Assembly: GCA_964384375.1 (NCBI GenBank)
Contig: CAYLLN010000002.1
Span: forward strand, 59,248 to 123,247
Direction: 5' to 3'
From: an uncultured Pirellulaceae bacterium
Lineage (GTDB): Bacteria > Planctomycetota > Planctomycetia > Pirellulales > Pirellulaceae
Length of the DNA: 64,000 nucleotides
Part shown: one piece after another, positions 2,775 to 59,219 of the stretch
Numbering within the stretch: the first letter of the stretch is position 1
How the letters are laid out: every line of letters begins with the position of its first letter
Made by a program: the position numbers and the translations under genes
The notes under the pieces: model-generated
Database searches by the model: none
What the model saw: only the letters and a program-made list of their open reading frames with translations
Told to the model about the DNA's origin: nothing

Positions 2775-3551
2775 TAGGTCCAGCCTGTCTGTAGGTCCGT
2801 CTTGCCGAGGCGGACCTCCGCTGGCCGTCAACATAGCCGCGACCACCGGTCGCGCGAAAGGCGTCAGCCCCCAAAGCCGCGACCATTGGTCGCGTTGTCT
2901 TGCCTCCCCGGAAGGGCGAGGCTGCCGCCGAGCCGCCTACTCGTAGGTCCACCCAGCCGGGGCGGACCTCTGCTTCCGGCGAGCGTGGGGCGTCAGCCCC
3001 ATGAGTTCAAGTAGGTTTGCCCTGCCGGGCCGGACCTCCACTCCTCAAGGTGGCCCACTACCCAAAGCATTCATCTCCTGAACAGCCCCGCGCCAACAAC
3101 CAACCATTCATACTTTTCGCGCTTTCGTCATCGCGCCCAGGGATATGAATCGCCGTAACTCGCAGCCAGCCAACGTCTTGGCGAATTACTCCCGACACCC
3201 CAAGTATGACTTTTATTCCCCGGTCCATGCCTCCCGCGGGCCTTCTGAACATTCCTTAACTAGGGAGTGTTCACCGCTGCCATCCTGTTGCTGGTGCGTC
3301 CCGACGGCCCGGCGGGACAGCACATCGGATCTCGTCGCTTGCCCACCAGCGCACCGTAAATTGCCGCACAGGCGCACCACGACCGTGCCATTCTGGCAGT
3401 CGCCACGATTAGTGTACAAAAACTGCAATTCGTGTGCCACGCCCGTAGGTCCGCCCTGCCGGGGCGGACCTCTGCTTCCATCGGTCGCTGGATCAACATA
3501 GCCGCGACCATTGGTCGCGTTGTATGGGAGATCGACGCTCCCGCCGAGCCG
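2775..3551. repeat. REP-like mosaic in an ~880-bp non-coding gap (modules A, B, C)
   Basis: Module A is the hairpin GTAGGTCCGCCCnGCCGGGGCGGACCTC, at 2791-2818, 2943-2977, 3011-3039 and 3445-3479. Module B is the palindrome GCGACCAnnGGTCGC, at 2839-2853, 2879-2893 and 3504-3518. Module C is GGGCGAGGCTnCCGCCGAGCCG, at 2914-2935 and 3537-3551. Confidence 0.85.
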
Positions 3552-12634: not shown

Positions 12635-12657
12635 GGCAGCACCCCGTCGCGAGGACC

Positions 12658-12672
12658 GCGACCACTGGTCGC
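12658..12672. repeat. module B palindrome GCGACCACTGGTCGC
   Basis: Located in the 49-nt gap between two pseudopilin genes. Same palindrome family as at 2839, 2879 and 3504. Confidence 0.8.
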
Positions 12673-12683
12673 GGCTATGTGTG

Positions 12684-27469: not shown

Positions 27470-27483
27470 AAGCGACGTTGGGA

Positions 27484-27505
27484 GGGCGAGGCTCCTGCCG
27501 AGCCG
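27484..27505. repeat. module C repeat GGGCGAGGCTCCTGCCGAGCCG
   Basis: Same module as at 2914, 43805, 44433 and 59153. Lies just after the pntB stop. Confidence 0.75.
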
Positions 27506-42540: not shown

Positions 42541-42858
42541 ATGTCCCCCCCCAAGGCCGCCAATCCGTTCTATGTTCTTGCCATCGTCGTGGGCGTAACG
42601 TTCGCCATTACCGCTTGTGCCTACGGAGTGATGACGGTCCGTGGCCTCGATCCCCACGCGGCCGACGAAGGGGGGCTCGTCGGACTGATGGACCAGCATG
42701 GTCTTGCGATCATGCTGGTCGAGTTGGCGGTGCTCGGCGTGCTGACGGTCCTCGCGATTGGAACCGATGACTTTTGGACGCGCCGCGGCGACAAATCGAC
42801 TGAGGCGCAGCTCGAAACTGCGAAGGCGAGCGAGAGTCGTCAGCCCCCTCAGGCTTGA
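42541..42858 (+). CDS. hypothetical small two-helix membrane protein
   Basis: Helices FYVLAIVVGVTFAITACAYGV and LAIMLVELAVLGVLTVLAI. The 3' end overlaps the convergent MlrC-like gene by 10 nt. Confidence 0.45.
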   Translation: MSPPKAANPFYVLAIVVGVTFAITACAYGVMTVRGLDPHAADEGGLVGLMDQHGLAIMLVELAVLGVLTVLAIGTDDFWTRRGDKSTEAQLETAKASESRQPPQA

Positions 42859-44402
42859 TGTTTGACGAATGGCTCCGCTTGCCACTGGCCGATTTCTTCC
42901 CACGGCCAGAGCGGGCGGGGGCGATGCGGATAATCGTATTCCCAGAAGTTTGGCGGGGCACAGCCGGGAGCCTGAATGCTGTAGATCGCCGCGGCCTTGC
43001 TTTCGTACACGGCCCGAAAGCCGCAGGGGCTTTTGGCCACGACGACCGCCGCGGCAAACGGATCGTTGCCGGCAGCGAGGAACAATTCGGGAGCAAAGTG
43101 CGGCCCGCTGCGCGTGGTAACCACGATGCGGATTTGTCCGACGCGGAGCACCACCGAGCGACCCATGTCGATTGCCAGGTTCTTTCCTAAATGGCCGCTC
43201 ATCACGAAGTGCGCGTCGAACAGCCGTTCGATCTGGCCGGTCAGCGGGATTCGCGTGCCGAAGACGTGATCGCGCAGGCCGCCGATCCGGCCCGACCAGG
43301 TTTGCCCTATGCCTAAACGCCAGGCTGCAGCAACAATCTCGGGAGCAACCACGGTGACGAGCACGGGCCGCGGCCATTCGTACTTGAGTAGCTCCTTAAG
43401 AATCCAGACGCTGTCGCCCGGCGCGCCGCTCGTGGTCGCGTCGGCAGCATCGCTAAGCACGACCAATCCGGTTGGATTCTTGTGAGCTTTATGGACTCCC
43501 TCCTCGATCGACACCAGCTCTGGAAGATACTCCCGCCGCCGTTGCCAAAGCTCGTCGGCCAGTTCGCGACAAAGTTGCTGGGCCAATTCCGGCTGGTTGT
43601 CGGTCGTGACGACGACCGCGGAGCCAAGTTCCTGGATATCCAACCACGGCTGCACGGTGGCGATGCCGGCGGTGAGGACTTCCGGGCGTTGTTCTAGGGC
43701 CTGCAGCTTGCGTTTCAGATCGACGCTGACGCCTGCAGCCGCTTCGGTATTGGCTCGCTCGGCCGGGAGGACGCAGGGGATTTTGACGACGGCAGTAGTG
43801 GGCCGGGAGGGCGAGGCTCCCGCCGAGCCGTCACCCCGACCAATGGTCGGGGCTTTGAGCAACCGTCGCAAAACTGCAGCGCCCCGTTCTCCAGTTTCAT
43901 AAACATCGACATGCGGAGCCGTGTGATAGAGCACGAGGGCATCAGCCGCAGCAACCATCGCCTGAGTAACATTGGCGTGCAAGTCGAGCGTCGCGACGAT
44001 CGGCACTTGCGGGCCAACGACCGCACGTACCGATTGAAGGATCTCACCCTCGACATCGGGATGTTCCTCTGCCGCCATCGCGCCGTGCAAGGCGAGCAGC
44101 ACGCCATCGACCGGCAGTGCCGACTGCAAGGCACCGATAAGTTCTTCCCGCAGCCAATCGAATGTCTCGGCGGTTGCTCGCCCGCTGGGCCAAGCCGGCA
44201 ACCGGACGAGGCCCACAATCTCTGGTTGCTCGGACCAGCGACGGAGCGACTGAATGAAACCGCCCAGTTCGTTCGTCTGGGCCATCTGCTCGATCAGTTC
44301 GGCACCGCGATGGATGCCAAACGACTCGAAATCCTGCCGAGTCGTCGCCAGTGGATTGAGCGTATTCGTCTCTTGCCAGAGCTGGCCGATGGCGATGCGC
44401 AT
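42849..44402 (-). CDS. M81 family metallopeptidase (MlrC-like)
   Basis: MRIAIGQLWQETNTLNP N-terminal signature from the ATG at 44402. MlrC C-terminal domain. Contains an in-frame repeat insertion (see 43805-43852). Confidence 0.8.
   Translation of the reverse strand: MRIAIGQLWQETNTLNPLATTRQDFESFGIHRGAELIEQMAQTNELGGFIQSLRRWSEQPEIVGLVRLPAWPSGRATAETFDWLREELIGALQSALPVDGVLLALHGAMAAEEHPDVEGEILQSVRAVVGPQVPIVATLDLHANVTQAMVAAADALVLYHTAPHVDVYETGERGAAVLRRLLKAPTIGRGDGSAGASPSRPTTAVVKIPCVLPAERANTEAAAGVSVDLKRKLQALEQRPEVLTAGIATVQPWLDIQELGSAVVVTTDNQPELAQQLCRELADELWQRRREYLPELVSIEEGVHKAHKNPTGLVVLSDAADATTSGAPGDSVWILKELLKYEWPRPVLVTVVAPEIVAAAWRLGIGQTWSGRIGGLRDHVFGTRIPLTGQIERLFDAHFVMSGHLGKNLAIDMGRSVVLRVGQIRIVVTTRSGPHFAPELFLAAGNDPFAAAVVVAKSPCGFRAVYESKAAAIYSIQAPGCAPPNFWEYDYPHRPRPLWPWEEIGQWQAEPFVKHQA
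43805..43852. repeat. composite module C+B' element inside the MlrC-like CDS
   Basis: GGGAGGGCGAGGCTCCCGCCGAGCCGTCACCCCGACCAATGGTCGGGG. Translated on the minus strand as PTIGRGDGSAGASPS. Near-identical copy at 59153-59200. Confidence 0.85.
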
Positions 44403-44432: not shown

Positions 44433-44456
44433 GGGAGGGATAGGCTCCTGCCGAGC
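44433..44456. repeat. module C repeat in the 61-nt gap between the aminotransferase and MlrC-like genes
   Basis: GGGAGGGATAGGCTCCTGCCGAGC. Confidence 0.7.
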
Positions 44457-44463
44457 TGAGGTT

Positions 44464-45762
44464 TCACGTTTCCGCGATGGCCCGGTCCAGTCTCGCCAGC
44501 GCCTCATCCACATCGGCAGCCGTCATTGCAGCGCAGAATCCATGATGGCACGGTGCGCCGCCGTAGTCGTGGAAATAGACGCCGTGTTTGTTCGCCGCCG
44601 CGTAGAAACGCATCAGCATCGCCCGGTCGTGCCTCTGAGCGTCTGCGTAGTTGGCAACGACTTCATCCGGCGCAAGGCCGAAGTATATGCCAAACCGTGC
44701 GCCCAGCCCTTGCACGCGGGCGTTGATGCCGCGGCGGGCAAAGAGCGCTCGCAATCCACTCAGCAGTCGCTCGGCCGTCGCGTGAATGTGCTCGTAGAAT
44801 CTCGGCTCGCGATAGGCAGTCACCGCTGCTTTGCCAGCCGCGACGACGACCGGGTGACCATTGTACGTGCCGCTGTGCTGGCAGTCCCCCATCGGCATCA
44901 GCCGCTGCATGATGTCGCGCCGGCCGCCGAACACGCTGAGTGGATAGCCGCCGCCGACCGACTTGCCGAGCGTACAGAGGTCCGGAGTCACGCCCAGGTA
45001 TTCCTGCGCCCCGCCAACTCCCATCCGAAACGCGCTAAGCACTTCGTCGAAGATCAGCACCGTGCCATGCCGCTCGGTCAGCCGCCGCAACGTCCCCATG
45101 AATTCGCTCGTCGGGAGCACACAGCCGGCATTGTAATAGACCGGCTCGATAATCGCCGCGGCCAGTTCACCGCCGAAGCGAGAGAAGGCCTCTTCCACCA
45201 GGTCCGGCCGGTTGTACGGTATTTGCACGAGATGCTGGTTCGTTCCTGCGGCGACGCCGGCCGAAATCGGCTTGAGTGGCGGATTGAACTGCCCCAGAGG
45301 GCCGTCGGCCGCCCACATCACCTGATCGTGATAGCCGTGAAAGTTTCCCTCGAAGCGCAGAATCTTCTGGCGACTTGTAAAGGCCCGCGCGAGGCGGAGG
45401 CAATGCATCGTCGCTTCGGTCCCCGCGCCGGTGAATCGCACGACGTCCAAACACGGCACCGACTTGCACAGCAGTTCGGCCAGCTCCGCGTGCAATTCCG
45501 ATTCATACGAACAAGCCGCCCCGCGATCGAGCGCCGCTTCGACTGCCGCTCGTACCCGCGGATCGCCGTGCCCCAGCAGTGTCGCCCCGTGGCTGCAGCA
45601 GAGGTCGATCAGCTCGCGACCATCAAGATCCCACACACGGCAGCCCTGGGCCTTGCGAAAGAGCATCGCGTGGCCGATCGCCTGGTTCACGCGAGTCGAT
45701 GACGACACGCCTCCGGCGAGGAATTGCTTGGCGTGGTCGTGTTGCTGCTGGACGAGGGACAT
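44464..45762 (-). CDS. class III aminotransferase (glutamate-1-semialdehyde aminomutase-like)
   Basis: FLAGGVSSSTR, FDEVLSAFRMG, and the PLP-lysine context TLGKSVGGGYP. Confidence 0.85.
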   Translation of the reverse strand: MSLVQQQHDHAKQFLAGGVSSSTRVNQAIGHAMLFRKAQGCRVWDLDGRELIDLCCSHGATLLGHGDPRVRAAVEAALDRGAACSYESELHAELAELLCKSVPCLDVVRFTGAGTEATMHCLRLARAFTSRQKILRFEGNFHGYHDQVMWAADGPLGQFNPPLKPISAGVAAGTNQHLVQIPYNRPDLVEEAFSRFGGELAAAIIEPVYYNAGCVLPTSEFMGTLRRLTERHGTVLIFDEVLSAFRMGVGGAQEYLGVTPDLCTLGKSVGGGYPLSVFGGRRDIMQRLMPMGDCQHSGTYNGHPVVVAAGKAAVTAYREPRFYEHIHATAERLLSGLRALFARRGINARVQGLGARFGIYFGLAPDEVVANYADAQRHDRAMLMRFYAAANKHGVYFHDYGGAPCHHGFCAAMTAADVDEALARLDRAIAET

Positions 45763-57485: not shown

Positions 57486-59219
57486 TCATCGAACCGCGAG
57501 CCACTGGCCGAGCTGATACAGCCACGGATGCGTCCACGGATTGTCCGCGCCGTAGTGAGCTGAGAAGGCACTGATGGCGATGAGGGCCAGCAGAATCGCC
57601 CGGCCGCGGCGCGACTGACCGAGCCAGTCGGCAGCCGGCAGAAGGGTGAGCAGCCAGAGAGGCGTGAGCCAGATCATCCAGCGGAGCGCGGTCGTGTGGC
57701 CGCCGTAATTGCGGTCGATGAGCGGTCGCGAAAGATAGAACGCAAGGACGACGAGCGTGATGGCGACGGTTGCAATGGCGAGAGCACGTGCAACTCCATC
57801 AAAGCCCTGACCATTGGTCAGGGTGTTTGGCGATAGCGGCGTCGATTGGTCATCCACCCCGACCACTGGTAGGGGCTTTGGGAAACGAACCCACATCCAG
57901 CAACCGGCGACCGAAAGCAGCCAGATCGGCATGAGCGAAAAGAGCCCGTGATGGCCAACGAGGCAATGGAAGGCGTACGTGAGCGGCGACGGCTCGCCCC
58001 GGTCGATGCCGGTGAGCTTCGCCGGGTCCCAATGCGTGCCGGGATAGTCGTACCAGTTGTCCCACTGGCGAATTTCAATGCGCAGCGACTTGCTCCCTTC
58101 GGGAGTGCGCTGCAGGGCATAACGTATGTGCGACTGCTCATCGAACAGGACCCAGCGATCGCCGCGCGTGCGGACTTCAATCGTGACTTGGTCGGACGGT
58201 GCAACGCCTGTCTCGCGCAGGGCGAACCTGAGTTCATCGGTGACGCGCCCCTCGTTGAGCGGCACGGTCAGCTGATCGGGCAATAAGCCGAATACGGGTC
58301 CATCCTGCCGATGGGCGTAGGCCGTCCGCCAGCTGCCGTGAGCGTAGTAGTTCGTCCCAATCGCGGCCGCGGCGACGACCAGGGCTGGCGGGACGAAGAA
58401 CGCAGCAGTTTTCAGTGGCGATTTCCAAGCCAGAGCGGCGGCAGCCAGCACCAGCAGTGACAGGGCGGGCAGTTCGTTGGCGGCCGTGAACGCGAAAAAC
58501 AGCCCGGCCAGGGCAAAGTGCCACCAGCGACCGCGGCTTTGCAGGATGGGTACGGCTGCCACCAGCGCGAACACGAGCGTGCAAGCCGCCAGCGAGTGGT
58601 TGTTGAGCGTGGCGCTGAAGGTCGTCACGAACGTCGCAATACAGGCGCAGGCCATCGCAAACAGTCGGCCAAAGTCGGTCTTCCCGAACTGGTCGATCAT
58701 TCGAGCCAGCAAAGCGAGCGCGATTGCCAGCGGGATGACGTTCGTCAGGACGAGCATGATCCGCGAGATCGGCCAGACATCGGCCGGTTTCGCCAGCGAC
58801 AACCCGGTGACTTGCTTGACGAGCCAGTATTGCCCAGCGAGCAGAGTGCTGAGCAGCGTCGGCTTGCTGGAGTAGTAGTGCTCGTGTCCGTCGGGTCCGC
58901 GATGGCGCACCAGGTCGATCGTGTGCCAGCCCCGGACCCGCGAGCCATCGGCATAGAAGATAATGTGCTCGATCGAGTAGATGCCGTGATCGCCAAGGGC
59001 CCGGATCGTACACCAGCGGCTTTTGTCGTTGGCGGATTGAAACGGCGTGGGGCTGAAGGCGTCGGGCGAGCGGTTCCGCATGATCCGCGCGGTGGTGAGG
59101 CTCGCGGCAAGGACGATGAAGAGGGCGTAGAGCGAGCGGCGGAGCACGTCGTGGGAGGGGGAGGCTCCCGCCGAGTCGTCACCCCGACCACTGGTCGGGG
59201 CCTTGTCGAGGACGCTCAT
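57486..59219 (-). CDS. polytopic membrane protein, probable GT-C-type (ArnT/PMT-like) glycosyltransferase
   Basis: More than 10 hydrophobic helices. Translationally coupled (ATGA) to the upstream polyprenol-phosphate GT2. Two repeat-derived in-frame segments. Confidence 0.45.
   Translation of the reverse strand: MSVLDKAPTSGRGDDSAGASPSHDVLRRSLYALFIVLAASLTTARIMRNRSPDAFSPTPFQSANDKSRWCTIRALGDHGIYSIEHIIFYADGSRVRGWHTIDLVRHRGPDGHEHYYSSKPTLLSTLLAGQYWLVKQVTGLSLAKPADVWPISRIMLVLTNVIPLAIALALLARMIDQFGKTDFGRLFAMACACIATFVTTFSATLNNHSLAACTLVFALVAAVPILQSRGRWWHFALAGLFFAFTAANELPALSLLVLAAAALAWKSPLKTAAFFVPPALVVAAAAIGTNYYAHGSWRTAYAHRQDGPVFGLLPDQLTVPLNEGRVTDELRFALRETGVAPSDQVTIEVRTRGDRWVLFDEQSHIRYALQRTPEGSKSLRIEIRQWDNWYDYPGTHWDPAKLTGIDRGEPSPLTYAFHCLVGHHGLFSLMPIWLLSVAGCWMWVRFPKPLPVVGVDDQSTPLSPNTLTNGQGFDGVARALAIATVAITLVVLAFYLSRPLIDRNYGGHTTALRWMIWLTPLWLLTLLPAADWLGQSRRGRAILLALIAISAFSAHYGADNPWTHPWLYQLGQWLAVR
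57857..57875. repeat. module B' palindrome inside the GT-C-like CDS
   Basis: CCCCGACCACTGGTAGGGG, translated as part of ...PKPLPVVGVDDQ... Confidence 0.7.
59153..59200. repeat. composite module C+B' element inside the 5' end of the GT-C-like CDS
   Basis: GGGAGGGGGAGGCTCCCGCCGAGTCGTCACCCCGACCACTGGTCGGGG, translated as PTSGRGDDSAGASPS. Twin of 43805-43852. Confidence 0.85.

Follow-up and report, generated by a model that had tools for sequence, protein, structure and literature searches.

An in-frame composite of two dispersed repeats, probably tolerated without a role of its own, in a loop of an M81 (MlrC-like) peptidase of an uncultured Pirellulaceae bacterium

How an enzyme gene comes to carry a copy of a dispersed repeat within its reading frame, and whether the encoded peptide has acquired a function, are questions raised by a 64,000-nucleotide stretch of DNA (hereafter referred to as the window) from an uncultured Pirellulaceae bacterium of the Planctomycetota (assembly GCA_964384375.1, contig CAYLLN010000002.1, positions 59,248 to 123,247 of the forward strand). 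A preliminary inspection of the letters alone (hereafter the sequence-only reading) had reported a 48-nucleotide (nt) element at 43805-43852, inserted in frame into the gene for an MlrC-like peptidase encoded by the minus-strand open reading frame (ORF) 42849-44402. The segment is a copy of a genus-restricted composite that fuses two independent families of short GC-rich dispersed repeats, termed here module C and palindrome B. It probably represents a tolerated in-frame composite repeat, which is translated without a role of its own and is likely to have been brought in by a transposase of the HUH/Y1 type.

The core of the element (43805-43852) joins the 25-nt word of module C to the 19-nt palindrome B' with the letters reported by the sequence-only reading, and is in frame. 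The conserved unit is longer than the 48 nt of the core and, with module C taken as a pyrimidine (Y), the 25-nt word and a G, and with a CA[A/T]AG tag for B, comprises 54 nt (43804-43857) or 18 codons. Module C occupies 43804..43830 (+) as the 27-nt unit Y + GGGAGGGCGAGGCTCCCGCCGAGCC + G, with a perfect match to the 25-nt core and the minus-strand reading GSAGASPS(R). It is followed by a 3-nt spacer, TCA, at 43831..43833 (+) and by palindrome B' with its tag at 43834..43857 (+), consisting of CCCCGACCAATGGTCGGGG and CTTTG (CAAAG on the sense strand), which forms a 9-bp stem in the mRNA fold and is read as KAPTIGRG. B' is a perfect 19-nt palindrome and module C is non-palindromic, with an inner stem of only 5 bp (GGCTC/GAGCC). 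A second copy, also recognised by the sequence-only reading, is located at 59152..59205 (+) (core 59153-59200) in the minus-strand ORF 57486-59219, in the same orientation and reading frame. The two cores differ at three of the 48 positions (45/48 identical), and a search of the window with up to three mismatches located the composite core at exactly these two sites, as against none in 100 dinucleotide-preserving shuffles. The composite readings are PTIGRGDGSAGASPS in 42849-44402(-) and PTSGRGDDSAGASPS in 57486-59219(-), the peptide segments corresponding to the element being KAPTIGRGDGSAGASPS and KAPTSGRGDDSAGASPS, respectively. The spacing from C to B seen in the peptidase gene is kept in six of the eight composites of this genome.

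Comparison with related sequences shows that the segment is an insertion or a replacement relative to the relatives. Among 37 aligned orthologues, 27 show a turn of four residues (consensus RRILVDG-ARPVTAF) at the place of 17 residues in the window peptidase, and the protein of known structure PDB 3IUU has a 14-residue gap at this position. Orthologues with 66-78% identity were found in five of the seven other genomes of the genus, and all five have the empty turn. A homologous segment in orthologues from repeat-free genomes would speak against an insertion; most orthologues, and all five congeners with the gene, show only the short turn, and the claim of an insertion stands. In metagenome data, words of module C are covered about 65 times as deeply as the flanks, and contigs end at this point. 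A single contig from another sample runs through the element without change.

The host gene, 42849..44402 (-), encodes an intact M81 (MlrC-like) zinc peptidase of 517 residues, in which the insert corresponds to residues 183-199. The protein matches PF07364 (DUF1485/M81 N-terminal, 1.9e-85) and PF07171 (MlrC C-terminal, 8.9e-36), and shares 24-26% identity with PDB 3IUU and 7YLQ. Its AlphaFold model (mean predicted local distance difference test score, pLDDT, 86) matches the two-domain fold of both structures, with TM-scores of 0.86 for 3IUU (E = 4e-42) and 0.82 for 7YLQ (E = 1e-33). The zinc ligands of MlrC, E39, D167, H169 and H191 (PMC9982164), align to E11, D140, H142 and H164 of the window peptidase (P0003), in columns that are invariant in the orthologue alignment, and the order of a class III aminotransferase gene followed by the peptidase gene is kept in the orthologues. 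The retention of the domains, the fold, the zinc ligands and the synteny indicates that the gene is intact and places its product in the M81 family. Translation most likely starts at 44402, as called in the public database (P0003, 517 residues) and by our home-made gene caller, and not at the first ATG at 44513. The latter would read as SARQEPIPP a degenerate module C (44433..44457 (+), four mismatches) that lies in the 61 nt separating the aminotransferase gene from the start of the peptidase; since this start would translate the degenerate module, the longer ORF is probably a mis-start.

In the predicted model the insert lies between a helix (residues 167-182) and a strand (202-208), with pLDDT values below 50 for residues 185-197, and is predicted to form a disordered loop. 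As the helix begins directly after the H164/D166 metal motif, the insert, placed at the end of this helix, would lie far from the zinc site, judging by the secondary structure. The alignment with orthologues and the mapping onto a structural model, the two checks proposed with the sequence-only reading, agree in that the segment is absent from most orthologues and falls in a loop that the model presents as disordered.

This loop is a hot spot that has been hit repeatedly in related lineages, and the ten closest orthologues differ in their content at the same loop. A B-type palindrome alone is present in P0004, whereas P0009 carries the same B'+C composite with the same spacer, five differences in 48 nt and 15-18 extra bases. 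The loop of P0010 contains three modules, one of which is a hairpin that flanks a Y1 transposase gene in the genome of the window (the C73 hairpin, core CACTGCTGGGCAAGCCAGCAGTG, in frame in P0010). Two unrelated hairpins are found in P0007, and decayed remnants in P0005, P0006, P0008 and P0011. In P0012 (L133:501-2015) the loop ESPRRRP is encoded by a palindrome with a 6-bp stem, TCGCCG AGA CGGCGA, which may represent a further mini-hairpin or else a remnant at this loop. In a tree inferred without the loop, the insert-bearing orthologues do not form one clade, which requires at least three to four gains or losses. The empty P0015 is the sister of P0009 (support 100/99), and the empty P0014 that of P0010 (97/96).

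The comparison with P0009 also bears on the kind of conservation. The two genes share 72% DNA identity, with 0.80, 0.87 and 0.50 at the three codon positions outside the element, while the element shares 86%, with 16/17, 15/17 and 13/17 identical positions, and most of its differences change the amino acid. The numbers are small, and 8.6% of equal-size windows of the gene reach 86% identity. The flat codon-position profile of the element points to youth or to homogenisation at the DNA level and not to selection on the peptide.

Both repeat families were surveyed in the complete set of contigs of the source genome (G000), a draft of 7.15 Mb in 194 contigs with 61.9% G+C and 99.8% completeness, in which the home-made caller, based on codon usage, predicted 5289 genes (85.6% coding). 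Module C has 116 copies at up to four mismatches. The position before the word is a pyrimidine in 85-94% of the copies and the position after it a G in 83-84%, and conservation stops abruptly outside these, in this genome as well as in others, which defines a unit of 27 nt. Palindrome B occurs at about 218 sites and measures 24 nt with its tag, CA[A/T]AG being present on one side of most copies; GTAG is found at 3 and CGTC at 6 of 326 B flanks. The genome-wide count inside and outside coding sequences (CDS) proposed with the sequence-only reading reveals that both modules are depleted in CDS, although far from rare there. For module C, 42 copies (36%) lie in called CDS and 64% outside, against the coding fraction given above (binomial p = 6e-34), and for palindrome B, 64 sites lie in called CDS and 67% of the total outside. 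The intergenic copies are mostly located in co-directional spacers, often 1-11 nt past a stop codon, and those of module C show no orientation bias (24 vs 27).

Within the window, the copies that are intergenic according to the same caller include a cluster at 2877..3550, with B at 2877 and 3502 and C at 2910-2934 and 3526-3550, a module C at 27480..27504 (+) with one mismatch and a palindrome B at 12656..12674. The sequence-only reading was right that free intergenic modules exist, and the positions it gave for them (2914, 27484, 12658) were off by 2-4 bases. A Pfam check of 19 hosts with in-frame copies gave clear matches for 16, which look like real genes, with the copies placed between domains or in known loops. 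These hosts include MutS (domain II), MetRS (linker before the tRNA-binding domain), an RluA-type pseudouridine synthase, ROK, thymidine phosphorylase, a PSCyt/PSD1 protein (PSCyt1/PSCyt2 linker), an MFS transporter (central loop), ThiD2-ThiE and SCO1 (tail). A hydantoinase A/B fusion carries a whole inverted C-C' doublet in frame at the domain junction.

The frames in which the repeats are read are far from evenly used. All six frames of module C are free of stop codons and the composite contains one, in a single frame, so that with five of its six readings open, stop codons account for one excluded frame only. The 42 copies of module C in CDS are read as EGEAPAEP (22), GSAGASPS (9), ARQEPRPP (5), GRARLPPS (3), GGRGSRRA (2) and a Leu-rich peptide (1), a distribution that departs from uniformity (chi-square p = 2e-8). 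The subset in which both flanks score best in the frame of the gene gives the same ranking (p = 0.011). All eight composites of this genome lie in CDS, and four more were found in two congeners. Of these twelve, from three congeneric genomes, eleven use two of the six readings, KA(P/A)TxGRG-x-GSAGASPS or EGEAPAEP-x-(A/P)RPxVxA (p ~7e-4 after correction for choosing two frames, although some copies may be orthologous and not fully independent). Among 118 stretches of other genomes, five of the 12 confidently intragenic copies of module C read EGEAPAEP. The readings that survive consist of small, polar or acidic residues and are prone to disorder, whereas Arg, Trp or Leu abound in the rare ones. 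The skew is the pattern expected of frame-biased survival and favours it; this suggestion of the sequence-only reading is supported by the census of readings.

The second host gene of the window, 57486..59219 (-), encodes a GT-C/GT87-like membrane protein of 577 residues, which has no Pfam match of its own; its orthologue P0141 carries PF09594 (GT87). If translation starts at 59219, the composite occupies codons 7-22. The ATG at this position overlaps the stop codon of the upstream gene (ATGA), which favours translational coupling. An alternative in-frame GTG is present at codon 25 (59147-59145), just past the element, and a protein started there would begin exactly with the conserved LRRSLYAL segment, as distant orthologues with short N-termini do. 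Repeat peptides make up much of the N-termini of the orthologues, which are hypervariable. Because an in-frame GTG follows the element, the second copy may belong to a non-coding inter-cistronic leader instead of the coding region. The proposal of two independent in-frame insertions holds for the first copy, which lies in a coding loop, and is in doubt for the second. Further inside the same gene, B-type palindromes at 57805-57823 and 57857-57875 (-) are read in frame as TLTNGQGF and KPLPVVGV in a loop of the membrane protein. They are common to about 12 orthologues at 70-72% identity and are lacking in the more distant ones, and some orthologues show an extra NGQGF repeat.

The two modules differ in their distribution. 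Palindrome B is present in all seven congeners (2-82 exact sites each), and beyond the genus in two of the 33 relatives searched, of which one, a member of the same family, has 27 sites and the other has one. Module C ranges from 0 to 76 copies per genome among 40 relatives and is present in five of 34 genera. The exact 25-nt core occurs in at least 118 stretches of other genomes (L014-L131, e.g. L057:7094-7118, L026:161-220), often as inverted doublets. The genomes with the verbatim core belong to Planctomycetota of all classes, Verrucomicrobiota, Armatimonadota, Acidobacteriota, Nitrospirota, Ignavibacteria and Binatia, in addition to one alphaproteobacterium and one Thermodesulfobacteriota genome. 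Several of the cross-phylum matches lie on contigs of 0.2-1.8 Mb, which makes mis-binning unlikely for those; in an Ignavibacteria genome (1.76-Mb contig), module C is in frame in the linker of DXS and is read as REGEAPAEP. The exact composite was not found in genomes of other species, and a search that relaxed the spacing recovered it from three genomes of the same genus only. Module C may, on a tentative view, represent an undescribed kind of miniature element, a sharply bounded word of 27 nt (nine codons) that is stop-free in six frames and verbatim across phyla. A full-text literature search for its sequence found no paper, the plasmid collection gave no match to the element and Rfam gave no match at gathering thresholds in the whole window.

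Several features of the genomic copies of module C deserve mention. About 20 copies form inverted C-C' doublets with loops of 4-30 nt. Those at C18:8510-8569, C3:48755-48815, C123:10785-10844 and C138:8204-8263, as well as about 16 more, constitute 25-bp hairpins, the two arms of which differ systematically, having the GAAGCTCCTGCTGAG and the GAGGCTCCCGCCGAG form. One strand of such a doublet pairs with two G:U pairs and one mismatch and the other with two A:C mismatches, and this inequality hints at strand-specific folding, as RNA or as single-stranded DNA. For a C-C' doublet, Rfam returned only sub-threshold matches to generic miRNA hairpins. A role of module C as the terminal repeat of an insertion sequence was considered; the one inverted pair checked, about 0.8 kb apart (L018), brackets an ordinary 157-residue ORF, which appears by eye to be a small glyoxalase/PhnB-type gene and not a transposase. 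Tandem heptamer arrays of GGGTTCA (also GGGGACA and GGAGTCA) often adjoin module C (e.g. C90:7800-7840, C34:24232-24270, C18:18295-18332, C5:59249-59290), and in several called ORFs they are translated as GFRVQGS-type peptides. Some full copies of module C are directly preceded by partial tandem duplicates of its 5' half (GGGAGGGCGAGGCTYGTT), as at C5:9830-9868, C4:18318-18335, C20:49290-49317 and C24:64300-64320, which suggests slippage or abortive copying.

The most likely route by which the element reached the peptidase gene would be copying in the form of a single-stranded DNA hairpin, carried out by an HUH/Y1 (RAYT-like) transposase acting in trans. Seven Y1_Tnp (PF01797) genes are present in the genome, and at least four of them are flanked by hairpin repeats of their own in a REPtron-like manner. 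Y1_Tnp genes bracketed by inverted copies of their own distinct hairpin are found at C3:59244-59585, C120:11287-11628, C40:1273-1620, C73:2078-2311 and C33:54282-54575. A resident hairpin may have served as a landing pad for further modules, which would explain both the fusion of C and B and the turnover of hairpins at one loop. Once in place, the element may have persisted because its length is a multiple of three, because the frame in use contains no stop codon and because a disordered peptide rich in Gly, Ser, Ala and Pro, placed at the end of a helix far from the zinc site, would be harmless. Copies inserted into structured parts of a protein, or read as Arg-, Trp- or Leu-rich peptides, would be removed by selection, which would leave the observed skew.

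A number of observations weigh against this account. None of the seven Y1_Tnp genes is flanked by B or C, although a copy may have been missed in a draft of 194 contigs, and only one of them, that of C73, has a module C within 2.5 kb, at a distance of about 1.1 kb. From the conserved LL to the conserved RP, the whole 51 nt derive from the element and the net gain is only 39 nt, which implies that the native turn was replaced and not simply split, an outcome that plain cut-and-insert does not predict; the junction is ambiguous by a few bases, owing to this replacement and to a divergence of about 20% from the nearest empty sites. Copies of module C in CDS are no more degenerate than the intergenic ones (mean 0.86 vs 1.31 mismatches). 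The codon-usage-based calls could inflate the favoured readings among weak ORFs. Contigs of four metagenome runs contain no empty-site allele, which is weak evidence since contigs drop rare variants. The replacement of the native turn makes a serious alternative of a transfer from another copy of the repeat through gene conversion, template switching or recombination, for which microhomology or a resident hairpin would have provided the seed, and this possibility, though the less probable one, accommodates the net gain of 39 nt for an element of 53-54 nt, with the loss of a 4-codon turn. The closest clade already has a B-type palindrome at the site (P0004), next to which module C could have been placed, neither B nor C flanks a transposase gene, and the partial duplicates of the 5' half of module C point to slippage-type dynamics. 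However, the unit has sharp boundaries that are identical in many genomes and phyla, and the copy number in relatives is patchy and burst-like (0 to 76), both of which fit active copying better.

Other explanations concern what keeps the segment in the gene. The 9-bp mRNA stem of B' could be retained because, for instance, it makes ribosomes pause or shields the transcript. The third codon positions of the element are indeed more alike between the window and P0009 than those of the rest of the gene (13/17 against 0.50), and the intergenic copies resemble REP sequences in lying mostly in co-directional spacers just past stop codons. A role of the nucleic acid within the gene is nevertheless improbable, since the 81-nt region folds no better than shuffled sequences (z = -1.07), intergenic module C is without orientation bias, the element is missing from the orthologues of the congeners and there is no Rfam match. 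The sequence-only reading had also considered exaptation as a surface loop. The repeat-encoded segment, which contains RGD, would in this case have been recruited, for instance as a flexible loop or for binding, and selection on the peptide would now preserve it. The occurrence of the same peptide in two proteins of the window, the recurrence of the same readings in the genome and the closeness of in-CDS copies to the consensus are in favour of exaptation. This explanation is very improbable, as the segment is predicted to be disordered and is missing from all five congeners that have the gene and from most orthologues, the content of the loop turns over, the host proteins are unrelated and the sites are linkers, and the differences from P0009 mostly change amino acids with near-equal identity at the three codon positions, as expected of DNA-level conservation or youth. 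Finally, the loop length varies among the closest orthologues, so the segment could be thought an old hypervariable part of the family that resembles repeats by chance. This is refuted by the short turn of the orthologues, the shuffle test and the empty sites of the congeners; module C matches its core perfectly, B' is a perfect palindrome, each has more than 100 copies elsewhere, and a 45/48 copy is present in an unrelated gene where none is expected.

A tolerated and translated composite repeat, the explanation preferred here, has parallels in other bacteria. Repetitive extragenic palindromic (REP) sequences of the GTAG/CGTC type are found within genes, a minority of them in frame in known genes, including repair genes, tRNA synthetases and pseudouridine synthases, and those at N-termini may be non-coding (Di Nocera, De Gregorio and Rocco 2013, PMC3733652). 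The repeats described here are likewise short GC-rich dispersed hairpins, mostly extragenic and just downstream of genes; they cluster at one site, occur in frame in repair, tRNA synthetase and pseudouridine synthase genes, and are doubtful as coding sequence in N-terminal cases. They differ in the tag of B, which is CA[A/T]AG and not GTAG/CGTC, in the lack of a palindrome in module C and in the unit itself, which is a fixed fusion of two families. The name REP, given to the element by the sequence-only reading, fits palindrome B loosely. A stem-loop is present in B' (19 nt, 9-bp stem) and weakly in module C, and the copies are numerous and mainly extragenic, but the conserved end is CA[A/T]AG in place of GTAG/CGTC, and no Y1 (RAYT) gene flanked by the same repeat is seen.

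In the REPIN/RAYT system, REP singlets and inverted doublets form long hairpins, and the families are lineage-specific and vertically inherited (Bertels and Rainey 2011, PMC3116915). The inverted C-C' doublets and the Y1 genes with flanking hairpins of their own resemble this organisation. In contrast, no RAYT flanked by B is found, a single module C lies 1.1 kb from one Y1_Tnp gene, and the word of module C is identical across phyla and patchy in relatives, where REPINs are lineage-specific and vertical. The in-frame repeats of functional Rickettsia genes (RPEs; Ogata et al. 2000), as presented in the papers that cite them (PMC3733652, PMC10969869), share with the present case an intact translated host gene, a surface-exposed segment, a frame-keeping length and orthologues without the repeat. 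In these accounts RPEs measure about 100-150 bp and belong to an obligate intracellular alphaproteobacterium, whereas the present unit has 54 nt, is modular and resides in a free-living planctomycete, so that its size falls outside that of RPEs.

In-frame repeats in functional genes are thus already known from the RPEs and the GTAG/CGTC REPs, and the planctomycete peptidase is a further example. The repeated colonisation of one loop in relatives and a sharply bounded 27-nt module that is verbatim in several phyla are new here, and the fixed composite of two modules is a further particular point. Low-complexity stretches of planctomycete proteins, e.g. GSAGASPS, EGEAPAEP, AATSGRG and PRPLVGAL, should be annotated as repeat DNA that is read through and not as domains, and N-terminal extensions built of repeat peptides may be mis-called starts. 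The repeated hits on one loop and the cross-phylum word of 27 nt provide leads on the targeting and spread of mini-elements. If module C is indeed an undescribed miniature element, it would point to a horizontally spreading mini-element (or its enzyme) with a size and a sequence shaped for harmless read-through. The peptidase loop offers a natural example of how much meaningless sequence an enzyme loop absorbs, and of which translations of a repeat survive.

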